Origin: a phage
NCBI GenBank assembly: GCA_014740375.1
Contig: GCA_014740375.1_3041.1
DNA length: 64,000 nt
Strand: one strand, 5' to 3'
Below the pieces are notes generated by a model. The model had not been told where the DNA came from and did no database searches. It saw only the letters and a list, made by a program, of their open reading frames with translations. The position numbers and the translations under genes are program-made. Shown here one piece after another: positions 29,610 through 64,000 of this stretch. Numbering within the stretch: position 1 is the stretch's first letter; every line of letters starts with the position of its first letter.

Positions 29610-31002
<1,393 letters not shown>

Positions 31003-31006
<4 letters not shown>

Positions 31007-32437: not shown

Positions 32438-34025
<1,588 letters not shown>

Positions 34026-60492: not shown

Positions 60493-60633
60493 TTACCATA
60501 CTAGTGAATGTAGTGCCATAATAACATCAGAAATGAAAAGCACGACTTGAATTAATCCGAACATTACTCCATAATATAGTGCTACCAATAAAGTAGCAAG
60601 GGCTAATGAATAGCCCAAGATTTTCTTAATCAT
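60493..60633 (-). CDS. Possible small hydrophobic ORF (46 aa)
   Basis: ATG-initiated hydrophobic ORF between gene 52 and upstream small ORF; no clear Shine-Dalgarno. Confidence 0.3.
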   Translation of the reverse strand: MIKKILGYSLALATLLVALYYGVMFGLIQVVLFISDVIMALHSLVW

Positions 60634-60784
60634 TAGTAGATAACAACACAAATGTTAAATATGCACACATACCCTGGGCTAAAGCTTGTGAAAACACACT
60701 GCTAGCATCGATACAGATAGTTAAAACACATGCTACTATCCAACAAATAAATGAAATAACTCCTAATAATTTTGCAATATTCAT
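60626..60784 (-). CDS. Small membrane protein (52 aa from MNIAKLL)
   Basis: GAGGAG Shine-Dalgarno; hydrophobic core; paralog of 60795-60950. Confidence 0.45.
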   Translation of the reverse strand: MNIAKLLGVISFICWIVACVLTICIDASSVFSQALAQGMCAYLTFVLLSTND

Positions 60785-60794
60785 AATATTCTCC

Positions 60795-60950
60795 TCAACT
60801 ATTTTTAGAACCAATGTACGCGAATAATGATAAAATCGCTAATACACCCTGAGCTGATGCTTGCAAAAATACTGAAGTTTCTCCAGTTATTACTGTTCCG
60901 ATGCATAAAAAGAACCAACAGAAAAAGGCTATACCGTGAACAAATTTCAT
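60795..60950 (-). CDS. Small membrane protein (51 aa), paralog of downstream ORF
   Basis: Shares SSVFSQALAQG / TSVFLQASAQG motif and hydrophobic helix with 60626-60784; GAGGA Shine-Dalgarno. Confidence 0.45.
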   Translation of the reverse strand: MKFVHGIAFFCWFFLCIGTVITGETSVFLQASAQGVLAILSLFAYIGSKNS

Positions 60951-60957
60951 ATTTTCC

Positions 60958-61038
60958 TCACTGGCGTCCGAAGACGCCTTTGGTTTTAAGATTGTTACGA
61001 TAAAACTGCATCACATGTTCGTTATGGAAATTACTCAT
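60958..61038 (-). CDS. stp: Stp peptide (26 aa; suppressor of three-prime phosphatase)
   Basis: Translation [26 protein letters not shown] matches T4 Stp as I recall it; ATG overlaps ndd stop by 1 nt. Confidence 0.8.
60963..60978 (-). promoter_or_regulatory. GC hairpin within 3' end of stp
   Basis: GGCGTC-CGAA-GACGCC covering the last codons of stp, just before the next Shine-Dalgarno. Confidence 0.4.
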
Positions 61039-61481
61039 TAATATGCCTGCAAAACAAATTTAAAGTTATCAGCCAACATACGGTTCATTTCTTCAAGTGT
61101 TTGATACTCAGAATGATGATTACGAGTAAACGCTAAAGCTAACTGACCTTTTCCAAATCCCGTCGTCAGAGGTTTCATCTTAGAAGCAGGCAGATAAAAC
61201 ACCGTGTATACCATATTATTATTTGCAATAGTACGCGCAAGTTGAGACCGTCGTTGACGAATATGACTTAAAACCGCGCTGAATCCTTGCTTAGAACGCT
61301 GATTACCTACATAAAATCGTGCAGATACACATGAACCATCGAATTCACTTACTAAAAAGTAAAATCCAGGTTTAGACAAAATGTCTTTGTGTGGAGTTCC
61401 CAAAAACCACTCACCGCCCTTGATTGTACCAATAACAGTAGCGCCTGCGTTGTTCAGATCAGTAACAGCCATATATTTCAT
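61038..61481 (-). CDS. ndd: Ndd (nucleoid disruption protein)
   Basis: 147 aa from [18 protein letters not shown] with GAGGA Shine-Dalgarno; track extension to 61529 lacks a ribosome binding site. Confidence 0.75.
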
Positions 61482-61541
61482 TTTAATTTCCTCTAAATTA
61501 TTTTCTACTCCAAGGCCGCATGAATACATACGGCCGATAAA

Positions 61542-61757
61542 TTAATCGTCGCAGTCGACGCTCAATTCCCAAAACTCTTCTACAGTATAAGTTTCAGTAT
61601 CATTTTCAATACAGAAACGTTCATTACTATTATTTGCTAAAGTAGCATTAACTGTCGGTTTCTCGCTAGTGCTCTTAAGAGGTGAAATACGAATTAACTG
61701 ATCACCATTATCTAAACAGAAAATTTCACCAACTTTTACATCTTTAAAACTTTTCAT
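61542..61757 (-). CDS. Hypothetical protein (ndd.1 position)
   Basis: 71-aa ORF. Confidence 0.5.
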   Translation of the reverse strand: MKSFKDVKVGEIFCLDNGDQLIRISPLKSTSEKPTVNATLANNSNERFCIENDTETYTVEEFWELSVDCDD

Positions 61758-61872
61758 AATTCACCTCAAGGAGTATAAAATCCAAATGCAGTTGTTGACC
61801 ATCCCATCCAATATGGGAAATTTGCACCAATGTAAAACATGAGAATATAAAACCAACCACTCAGCAAATTCA

Positions 61873-62070
61873 TCATTTTACACCATTCCAAATTGTTTCA
61901 ACCACAGATTTTAAACCATTTTGATGAATATCCATTCCGACTACCGCCATCAAATAGATTCCAACTACAACTGAACCTAAGGCAAAAATCAGCATGAAAA
62001 TGAATAAAGCCGGAAAAATATTATCGAAAAACCATTCAATAAATGTAAAAGCACTACGTTTACGCTTCAT
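61873..62070 (-). CDS. Small membrane protein (65 aa from MKRKRS)
   Basis: GAGGA Shine-Dalgarno; two hydrophobic segments. Confidence 0.45.
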   Translation of the reverse strand: MKRKRSAFTFIEWFFDNIFPALFIFMLIFALGSVVVGIYLMAVVGMDIHQNGLKSVVETIWNGVK

Positions 62071-62077
62071 ATTTTCC

Positions 62078-62191
62078 TCACATAAATCCAAAATAAGCGT
62101 TTAATACATCAATCATTAAAACGATTGGGAATATACTCAAAACTATTAGTATTATAACTACATTCCATATAGCTTTAATAATCTTTTTCAT
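62078..62191 (-). CDS. Small membrane peptide (37 aa)
   Basis: GGAGG Shine-Dalgarno downstream of an early promoter; track ORF over-extended through the promoter. Confidence 0.4.
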   Translation of the reverse strand: MKKIIKAIWNVVIILIVLSIFPIVLMIDVLNAYFGFM

Positions 62192-62219
62192 TTTCTGTTC
62201 CTCCGTAGTTGATAGGGTA

Positions 62220-62249
62220 ATAGTACCACGGAAGAACAGTCTTGTAAAC
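62220..62249 (-). promoter_or_regulatory. T4-type early promoter
   Basis: Minus strand GTTTAC, 18 bp, TACTAT. Confidence 0.5.
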
Positions 62250-62434
62250 AACTTTTTTAAAAATATTCGTAATAAATGTGAATACCAACTACTACCGCTG
62301 AAACCTGTGCAACCCACCACGCACAAGCAATAAGTACAGAATTCAAAATTTTCATAATAACCTCATCACAAAAGTAAATGTTAAACAAATTACTGGAATA
62401 CTAATTAACCAAACAAAACACCACCATAATGAAC

Positions 62435-62698
62435 TCATAGCTCAATCTCAGCGATTTTCATTTCATTACTATTAATAGCCTCTTTAAGACTATCTGAAAG
62501 AATTACATTCCAGTGGTCATTCATATGACCATTAACTAAGCGTGTAATTTCTTCAGGAGTTGAAAAATAAGGCTGATCAGACTCCCAATGCGATAATCCT
62601 AAGCGAGTATAAATCATGCCTTCATCATCGCTCGAATATTCAACTGACACAAACTCATCAGTTATTTTATGTTTAGCGTAATAAAATTTAAATTTCAT
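62435..62698 (-). CDS. Hypothetical protein (87 aa from MKFKF)
   Basis: ATG with GGAG Shine-Dalgarno downstream of an early promoter; track start is TTG. Confidence 0.5.
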   Translation of the reverse strand: MKFKFYYAKHKITDEFVSVEYSSDDEGMIYTRLGLSHWESDQPYFSTPEEITRLVNGHMNDHWNVILSDSLKEAINSNEMKIAEIEL

Positions 62699-62735
62699 TT
62701 TATTCTCCAAATCCGTATCAGTAGTTGATAGTTGT

Positions 62736-62765
62736 ATAGTACCACGGTCCTTGTGGTATGTAAAC
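62736..62765 (-). promoter_or_regulatory. T4-type early promoter (cassette family B)
   Basis: Minus strand A/T-rich upstream tract, GTTTAC, 18 bp, TACTAT. Confidence 0.55.
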
Positions 62766-62783
62766 CGTTTTGTGAAAAAATTT

Positions 62784-63341
62784 TTAAATGGAAAGATACC
62801 ATCCGTTGTAGTTGCTTTTTCTTACAACCTTACGAAGGTCTTCTCTGTCACCGATGAACTTCGGAGTGTACTGGATGACACCTGGATGAATTTCTTTAGT
62901 GTTGAATATAATTATACAGTCAGCGACTTGATGATTTAGAATGGGCCCTAAATTTATTCCAGAACCATATGGATACTCTCCGCTGCATCCCGTTGTTACC
63001 GAAATCCAACGCGAGTCAGTTTGATGTGTTTTGACTTCTACACGAAGCCCGCAATATTTTGGATGCGCTAAAACATCCCATGCATACGTGTACGGATCAT
63101 CGACATTTTCTTGGCCTTTATTGACATATCCGCTTAGCCAATCTGCCACAAAAAACTCTGCGTACACAGCGATACGGCATCTTTCGATAACTTCTGCTTT
63201 ATCCTGGTTCGGGTTTTGTTTTAAAGAGTATCTTGCTGTATCAGCAATTTTGACCTTCATTTCACTAGTCAAGTCACTGTTCGATAGGGTAAATGTCGGA
63301 ATCTGAAATAGTCTCTGTAACCCAGGATTCGTTTTCTGCAT
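62784..63341 (-). CDS. denB: Endonuclease IV-like protein
   Basis: 185 aa, same length and map position as T4 denB (upstream of ndd cluster); assignment by length and synteny. Confidence 0.6.
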   Translation of the reverse strand: MQKTNPGLQRLFQIPTFTLSNSDLTSEMKVKIADTARYSLKQNPNQDKAEVIERCRIAVYAEFFVADWLSGYVNKGQENVDDPYTYAWDVLAHPKYCGLRVEVKTHQTDSRWISVTTGCSGEYPYGSGINLGPILNHQVADCIIIFNTKEIHPGVIQYTPKFIGDREDLRKVVRKSNYNGWYLSI

Positions 63342-63385
63342 TTAAACTTTCCTTTATGTCGGAATCATAATTTCTCTTAAAACAA

Positions 63386-63401
63386 AAGGGCCGAAGCCCT
63401 T
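63386..63401 (-). terminator. GC hairpin (GAAG-type loop) flanked by T-rich tracts
   Basis: AAGGGC-CGAA-GCCCTT between the 64-aa ORF and denB. Confidence 0.45.
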
Positions 63402-63404
63402 ATT

Positions 63405-63599
63405 TTATTTGAATTGTGCGATTCTTTTCTCTAGACACTCAGCATAAGATTTCATTGAGATGAACTGCGAAAGTAGCAGTTCTTGCTCAACTGCGTTAAC
63501 TGTTAGAAACTTTGCGCTTTCTAAAAATTTGCTCAGTGCATTAATTTTGAGCATTAATTGATCGTATTCTTCTTTTACTCGTGCTTGATAACCTAACAT
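63405..63599 (-). CDS. Hypothetical protein (denB.1 position)
   Basis: 64-aa ORF with AAGGA Shine-Dalgarno. Confidence 0.5.
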   Translation of the reverse strand: MLGYQARVKEEYDQLMLKINALSKFLESAKFLTVNAVEQELLLSQFISMKSYAECLEKRIAQFK

Positions 63600-63616
63600 A
63601 ATTTTCCTTAATATGA

Positions 63617-63634
63617 TAAGGGCCGAAGCCCTTA
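63617..63634 (-). promoter_or_regulatory. GC hairpin overlapping stop of upstream gene
   Basis: TAAGGGC-CGAA-GCCCTTA. Confidence 0.4.
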
Positions 63635-64000
63635 TTTAAATTGTTCAGTAACGTCTTCAACTACTTCGTATTGGCAGGTACGCATTTTAGCATCGTTGTA
63701 ATCAATCGGAATTGATACTACATCACGTGGATGTACTTTAACTTTTACAACTCGGCTGGTTGAACTGCCAAAGTGACGAATATAAGATTTAGAACATACA
63801 TGCAGACCACGAGAACAAGTTTGTGTATCATCGTCATTCACACGAGTACGCGGCATTTTAACTACTTTACCAGGACTGTTATCAAAGGTGTTTGAGTGAC
63901 AGTCAAAGTAGTTGTCACGAACTACTTTCCAAGCATAGAAGTAACCATCTTCTGTAATTTCAATATCGTTTGCTACCAAGAAATCAAAGAGTCGAGATAC
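63632..64000 (-). CDS. C-terminal part of an ORF that continues beyond the window end (possibly rIIB by synteny)
   Basis: Minus-strand frame is open from position 64000 down to the stop at 63632-63634; track start at 63979 is an internal TTG. Confidence 0.45.
   Translation of the reverse strand, partial: VSRLFDFLVANDIEITEDGYFYAWKVVRDNYFDCHSNTFDNSPGKVVKMPRTRVNDDDTQTCSRGLHVCSKSYIRHFGSSTSRVVKVKVHPRDVVSIPIDYNDAKMRTCQYEVVEDVTEQFK

Follow-up and report, generated by a model that had tools for sequence, protein, structure and literature searches.

An overlooked 26-codon stp gene overlapping ndd in a T4-like Shigella/E. coli phage, and Stp-like reading frames in siphophages

Directly downstream of ndd in this phage lies a reading frame of only 26 codons, and the locus raises the question of whether such a short frame is a gene and, if so, how it is related to the tRNA-repair genes of the same DNA. 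The window, meaning the whole stretch of 64,000 nucleotides that was analysed, belongs to a Tequatrovirus and is collinear with T4 over the regions compared. An initial annotation had recognised an 81-bp open reading frame (ORF) at 60958-61038 as encoding the T4 Stp peptide and had grouped it with pseT and rnlA into a 'PrrC-countermeasure set'. The ORF of 26 residues is present at this position on the minus strand, which had been left unstated; the plus-strand frame of the same interval is open yet meaningless. The genes at and around the locus are as follows.

60958..61038, minus strand: stp, 26 codons and a stop, assigned by its translation, identity to T4, PF08133 and PHROG 6763
61038..61481, minus strand: ndd (nucleoid disruption protein, 147 aa), Pfam PF06591 with 288 bits, 139/151 identical to T4 Ndd
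60795..60950, minus strand: ac-like paralogue (51 aa, membrane-type), PHROG 2501 with 91 bits, directly downstream of stp
60626..60784, minus strand: ac (acridine resistance protein homologue, 52 aa), PHROG 2501 with 88.6 bits, Sf22 gp160, at the position of T4 ac

With 41 ORFs of 20 aa or more overlapping the 3 kb around stp, a bare ORF of 26 codons is no more than what chance would produce, and it is the identity of its product to T4 Stp together with a coding-type pattern of conservation that marks this one as real. Minus-strand translation of 60958..61038 gives a 26-residue peptide followed by a stop, and its alignment with T4 Stp (NP_049878) is identical at 26/26 positions. Alignment of the DNA reveals three nucleotide differences from T4 stp (CAT/CAC, TTT/TTC and ACC/ACT), all three of which are synonymous third-position changes. 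The peptide matches the Pfam family PF08133 ('Anticodon nuclease activator family') with 75.3 bits (E 2e-21; the curated cut-off is 25 bits), its residues 1-26 lying on profile positions 1-26, and PHROG 6763 ('activator of host PrrC lysyl-tRNA endonuclease') with 75.4 bits. The position relative to ndd and ac agrees with these matches. As judged from sequence comparison, 60958..61038 is the T4 stp gene, and the identification made at first was correct.

The nearest relative of the window is Shigella phage Sf22, to which the 1-kb stretch around stp is 99.7% identical; among the 552 phage records that match this stretch, 472 do so with 90-95% identity. In a tblastn search, Stp at least 99% identical to the peptide was found to be encoded in 423 phage records, and the rows sampled from these are mainly genomes of Tequatrovirus size. 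The gene is rarely annotated. The Sf22 record (MF158045.1) carries no annotation of stp (L002:2663-2751), a stp-type feature lies under the match in 1 of about 27 T-even rows sampled (T2), and a 'terminator' is annotated at the stp match in three GenBank records. That stp goes unannotated in Sf22 and in most of the sampled T-even records is due to gene callers, which skip ORFs of 26 codons.

The start codon of stp had been described as sharing a nucleotide with the ndd stop, and the coordinates bear this out. On the minus strand the TAA of ndd (whose coordinates are taken from the ATG preceded by GAGGAAA) occupies 61040..61038 and the ATG of stp 61038..61036, forming TAATG with base 61038 in common. 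The overlap of 1 nt is identical in T4, where ndd lies at 165585..166040 and stp at 165505..165585. This overlap, together with a weak AGG 7 nt upstream, suggests that translation of stp is coupled to that of ndd through termination and reinitiation. The gene order 52 - 52.1 - ac - (ac paralogue) - stp - ndd - ndd.1 is that of T4 save for the paralogue, whose counterpart in Sf22 is gp161, annotated as 'similar to T4 ac'. Downstream of stp, the hairpin described below, the ac paralogue and ac follow one another in the window and in Sf22, whereas in T4, which is without the paralogue, the hairpin is followed by ac, with the junction at the start-codon ATGAA after which the alignment with T4 diverges. 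T4 stp is thus like that of the window in its 26 aa, its position between ndd and ac, the TAATG overlap and the hairpin in codons 21-25, and unlike it in three synonymous bases and in a downstream neighbour that is not an extra ac-like paralogue.

A pattern scan of the minus strand from 61038 to 64000 detected no MotA-type middle promoter for ndd and stp, while several sigma-70-like sites are present farther upstream on this strand. The absence of a MotA-type promoter is consistent with the expression of T4 stp, reported to be delayed-early and of the read-through mode (PMC3014915). Across the window the MotA pattern has 31 matches as compared to 24.6 +/- 5.5 expected, which is not above chance. 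MotA-box-like patterns were seen on the minus strand at 33589-33614 (TGCTTCCACATGGAATGTGGTACTAT), just upstream of the rnlA start, and at 60518-60542, inside 52.1 and upstream of gene 52. It seems plausible that stp is transcribed with ndd in an early leftward polycistronic message and that it is probably translated by ribosomes which terminate on the UAA of ndd and reinitiate on the AUG that overlaps it, aided by the weak AGG.

The last codons of stp form a GC hairpin, as the initial annotation had stated.

60963..60978, minus strand: C(UUCG)G tetraloop hairpin with a 6-bp stem (GGCGUC/GACGCC), in stp codons 21-25

Folded in a 31-nt context (60955..60985), the hairpin has an energy of -12.2 kcal/mol (z = -2.6), and 1 of 200 shuffled sequences folds as well. 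A gap of 2 nt separates its end from the stp stop, and one of about 3 nt from the Shine-Dalgarno (GAGGA) of the gene that follows, into which the stop UGA runs. Its presence gives rise to another explanation of the locus, in which the ORF is a product of chance and the conserved element is really an RNA hairpin that separates ndd from ac, either a processing site or a terminator. The density of ORFs around stp, the stability of the hairpin, its terminator-like score in a scan and the 'terminator' features of some GenBank records all speak for this explanation. The terminator-like score was obtained on the antisense (+) strand only, and the sense (minus) strand continues after the stem with AGUGAGGAAAAUAUG and has no U-tract. 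On these grounds we rejected the hairpin as an intrinsic terminator of the stp/ndd transcript, and the same two observations count against the explanation by an RNA element. In the plus-strand reading, antisense to every gene nearby, the hairpin is followed by TTTGGTTTT with a terminator-like score; in this orientation it could stop antisense transcription entering the early-gene block.

Natural variation of the gene bears on the respective roles of peptide and hairpin. Three further Stp sequences were compared.

L003:1201-1284: T2 Stp (YP_010073913), 27 residues, C-terminus NFGILGFKK
L004:1201-1287: YUEEL01 Stp, C-terminus NFGILGSKNS
SP18 (Gaprivervirus) Stp: 26 residues, hairpin with a UUUG loop

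Residues 1-18 of Stp are identical in the window, T4, T2 and YUEEL01. The T2-type allele resembles the window in these residues and in the ndd overlap but has another C-terminus, a length of 27-28 aa and no hairpin. In YUEEL01, the 3' end of stp (15 coding nucleotides and the stop, GGTTCTAAAAATAGTTGA) agrees base for base with that of the ac paralogue of the window, which suggests that this allele is an in-frame deletion fusing stp codons 1-18 to the tail of an ac paralogue. The apparent in-frame deletion of T2 and YUEEL01 is natural support for the dispensability of both the C-terminus of Stp and the hairpin. In published work, deletion of the last 8 stp codons reduced activity only moderately, loss-of-function mutations cluster at residues 4-14, and relatives of T4 show almost no variation in the N-terminal 18 residues (PMC3014915).

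Stp-like ORFs of 25-27 aa are also present in siphophages, namely in Kagunavirus, Drexlerviridae, Skatevirus and their relatives, where nearly all records leave them unannotated. A query of the Skate type alone retrieved 186 siphophage records with such ORFs at E<=0.01, which makes this number a minimum. Five copies were extracted.

L006:2501-2578: RP180 (Kagunavirus), Stp-like peptide of 25 residues
L011:2001-2078: Ro145clw (Kagunavirus), peptide of 25 residues; position 15 is N or H in RP180/Ro145clw
L007:2501-2578: PH1062 (Drexlerviridae), peptide MSSHHNEHVMQLYRHNLKSHGRLGK
L010:2001-2081: JohannLBurckhardt (Drexlerviridae), peptide of 26 residues
L008:2501-2584: Skate, peptide MSNWHNEHIMQWYRRRIKVITNSCEVQ

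All five pass PF08133 (34.9-70 bits), each is preceded by its own GGAG-type Shine-Dalgarno, and the siphophage ORFs have in common the N-terminal core MS-x-x-HNEH-x-MQ-x-x-R-x-x-x-K. Among 11 sequences from five phage lineages, the residues M1, S2, H5, N6, E7, H8, M10, Q11, R14 and K18 are invariant, and most of them fall inside the published loss-of-function cluster at residues 4-14. A search of the literature found no description of Stp outside the T-even phages; this search was incomplete and is weak evidence of novelty, and the PF08133 family may already contain siphophage members. An occurrence of Stp on plasmids was considered and rejected, since the sole match, CP088689.1, is the 44-kb genome of a Kagunavirus-like phage. 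This record (E. coli pC16EC0033-2) is circular, encodes lysozyme, NinH and terminase, and is filed as a non-mobilizable plasmid of a blood isolate.

These copies bear on the choice between peptide and RNA element. The peptide is kept without the hairpin in the T2-type, Kagunavirus, Drexlerviridae and Skatevirus copies, and the window differs from the Kagunavirus copies by 10-11 synonymous codons as compared to 1-2 non-synonymous ones. The excess of synonymous changes and the separate Shine-Dalgarno sequences of the siphophage copies indicate selection on the peptide and not on the DNA or RNA. Moreover, genetic and in vitro work in T4 used the Stp peptide itself (PMC3014915). A chance ORF over a conserved RNA element is in effect refuted by the conservation pattern, and we regard its probability as negligible.

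With stp read as a peptide gene, the hairpin needs an account of its own. It is found in the T4 allele and, with its UUUG loop, in SP18, and neither the T2-type allele nor any of the extracted siphophage copies has it. It is not forced by the peptide sequence, a possibility which we rejected because RP180 encodes KGVFGK with GGGGTGTTTGGAAAA, which folds at only -1.9 kcal/mol. Since it is missing from the T2-type and siphophage copies, including RP180, the hairpin is, on this comparison, an RNA-level feature of one (T4-type) allele lineage and dispensable for the peptide. Most likely it would contribute to stability or form a barrier at the 3' end, or else modulate coupling to the downstream ac-like gene.

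T-even DNA, with its glucosyl-hydroxymethylcytosine, largely escapes type I restriction, for which reason the benefit of an anti-restriction peptide to the phage of the window is not obvious. It could be argued that stp, though conserved, is a relic that lies functionally idle, type I restriction being irrelevant to a phage with hypermodified DNA. In addition to the general resistance of such DNA to type I enzymes, the natural rearrangement of the C-terminal third of stp in the T2/YUEEL01 allele would fit with a relic. Against it, codons 1-18 show no non-synonymous change between the window, T4, T2 and YUEEL01 while the neighbouring Ndd has diverged to 92%, and the peptide is retained at no less than 99% identity in the 423 phage records mentioned above. 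The unchanged codons and the number of records point to ongoing purifying selection, and we hold an idle relic to be highly unlikely.

The function of Stp is known from T4. Stp relieves type Ic restriction (EcoprrI, EcoR124I) but not type Ia restriction (EcoKI, EcoBI); it is both necessary and sufficient to activate the anticodon nuclease PrrC, which is latent on EcoprrI and for whose unmasking GTP hydrolysis, dTTP and unmodified DNA serve as cofactors, and the cleaved tRNA is repaired by Pnk and Rnl1 (PMC3014915, PMC1484252, PMC12707154). The description of the peptide in the initial annotation as an activator of the host PrrC anticodon nuclease agrees with the same literature (PMC3014915, PMC1484252, PMC12707154). 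A review of 2025 (PMC12707154) still lists the mechanism by which Stp inhibits EcoprrI as unknown. As the peptide is identical to that of T4, both type Ic inhibition and PrrC activation should apply here. By analogy with the T4 experiments, the N-terminal 18 residues would act on type Ic complexes such as EcoprrI and EcoR124I and block restriction. In hosts that carry PrrC on EcoprrI, this inhibition would unmask PrrC, which cuts tRNA-Lys 5' of the wobble base. Stp hence acts against restriction and at the same time triggers PrrC, with Pnk and Rnl1 as the countermeasure. We are highly confident of this account as a whole, that is, of stp in a Tequatrovirus nearest to Sf22 along with its inferred expression and T4-derived function, and none of the data speak against the identification.

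The same logic, in which a restriction inhibitor is sensed and an abortive response follows, applies to T7 Ocr, which PARIS senses, and to the Ronin system (PMC12409349; bioRxiv 10.1101/2023.04.06.535777). Ocr is a DNA-mimic protein and is unrelated to Stp in sequence and size; unlike Ocr, Stp is a peptide, of 26 residues, whose specificity is for type Ic enzymes (PMC12707154).

The repair enzymes named by the initial annotation, polynucleotide kinase at 29799-30704 and RNA ligase 1 at 32438-33562, are both intact.

29799..30704, minus strand: pseT (Pnk, polynucleotide 5'-kinase/3'-phosphatase, 301 aa), 'healing' of PrrC-cut tRNA-Lys
32438..33562, minus strand: rnlA (gene 63, RNA ligase 1, Rnl1, 374 aa), the 'sealing' enzyme
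30704..31006, minus strand: extra ORF of 100 aa, PHROG 2364, between pseT and pseT.1 and absent there in T4

Pnk is identical to its T4 orthologue at 299/301 residues (99%) and Rnl1 at 368/374 (98%). Both match the T4 structures over their full length, with the catalytic residues conserved: Pnk aligns with PDB 1LTQ over residues 1-301 (E 2.6e-209) and Rnl1 with PDB 2C5U (E 5.5e-253). In Pnk, the Pfam domains AAA_33 (residues 5-148, the P-loop kinase) and HAD_PNKP (159-301, the phosphatase) are present, and K15, S16, D35, R38, R126, D165 and D167 are kept, the last two forming the DxDxT motif. A further in-frame ATG lies upstream of pseT at 30707, and the T4 gene is annotated from the second ATG. 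Rnl1 consists of RNA_lig_T4_1 (52-246, the nucleotidyltransferase) and T4_Rnl1_C (253-374, the C-terminal domain peculiar to Rnl1), and retains K99 of the KxDG adenylation motif (TKEDGS), E159, E227, K240 and K242. The order denA-rnlA-alc-pseT.3-pseT.2-pseT.1-pseT is that of T4, with the one extra ORF added. The T4 annotation credits Rnl1 with tail-fibre attachment too, and Pnk is also credited with the processing of RegB-cut mRNA (PMC3014915). ARAGORN found no tRNA genes in the 64-kb window and so no phage tRNA-Lys that might serve as a third route of PrrC evasion. An Rfam scan of the whole window (1-64000) gave no matches at gathering thresholds, group I introns included. T4 has a group I intron in nrdB, close to rnlA.

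The presence of stp, pseT and rnlA in the same window, to which the initial annotation had drawn attention, is real, but they do not form a linked module. The distance from stp is about 30 kb to pseT and about 27 kb to rnlA, with equal spacing in T4, and the presence of all three in one window reflects the genome order of T4. The designation 'PrrC-countermeasure set' is right for Pnk and Rnl1, which counter PrrC, but not for Stp, which inhibits EcoprrI and triggers PrrC (PMC3014915, PMC1484252, PMC12707154); being the trigger, Stp is mislabelled by it. A stronger version would have the three genes as a dedicated, co-selected anti-PrrC module in which Stp itself helps against PrrC. All three genes are present and intact, and the T4 annotation ties rnlA and pseT to prr hosts, as such a module would have it. 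The genetics of T4 indicates the opposite for Stp, since phage that are pnk- or rli- are rescued on prr+ hosts by loss-of-function mutations in stp (PMC3014915), which means that Stp works against the phage there. The separation of 27-30 kb and the different transcription units are likewise at odds with a module, and so is the Drexlerviridae phage JohannLBurckhardt, which has a Stp-like ORF.

In JohannLBurckhardt, the only Stp-carrying siphophage genome examined whole, tblastn found no Rnl1 homologue. About 480 bp downstream of its Stp-like ORF lies an isolated phosphatase domain homologous to that of Pnk (HAD_PNKP with 75.5 bits; L010:2558-3094 = L013:43448-43984). A 'P-loop NTPase' near this homologue gave no match in a Pfam search. 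A full repair pathway in this phage was rejected, as the phosphatase homologue stands alone without Rnl1. The lack of Rnl1 suggests that Stp spreads independently of the repair enzymes. We therefore see very little chance that a co-selected anti-PrrC module is the correct description, and keep to Stp as the trigger and Pnk and Rnl1 as the countermeasure.

The joint presence of stp, pseT and rnlA is already known, textbook T4 biology. Finding this textbook set intact in a T4-like phage of Shigella/E. coli has little weight for the window itself, and the practical value lies in the annotation of the overlooked stp. As the Stp/PrrC pair founded the class of defences that sense the inhibition of a restriction system, a correct inventory of where Stp occurs is useful background. 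Siphophages of the Kagunavirus, Drexlerviridae and Skatevirus type are not known to carry hypermodified DNA of the T-even kind. It is conceivable, although we put this forward tentatively and with some doubt, that the Stp family is not peculiar to T-even phages and that, provided the siphophage peptides work, the real niche of Stp is ordinary anti-restriction in small siphophages, with PrrC guarding against it, and that T4 is the exception by virtue of its tRNA repair. The siphophage homologues are the only part of these findings that is worth an experiment. Should their peptides prove able to inhibit type Ic enzymes, PrrC would guard effectively against such phages.
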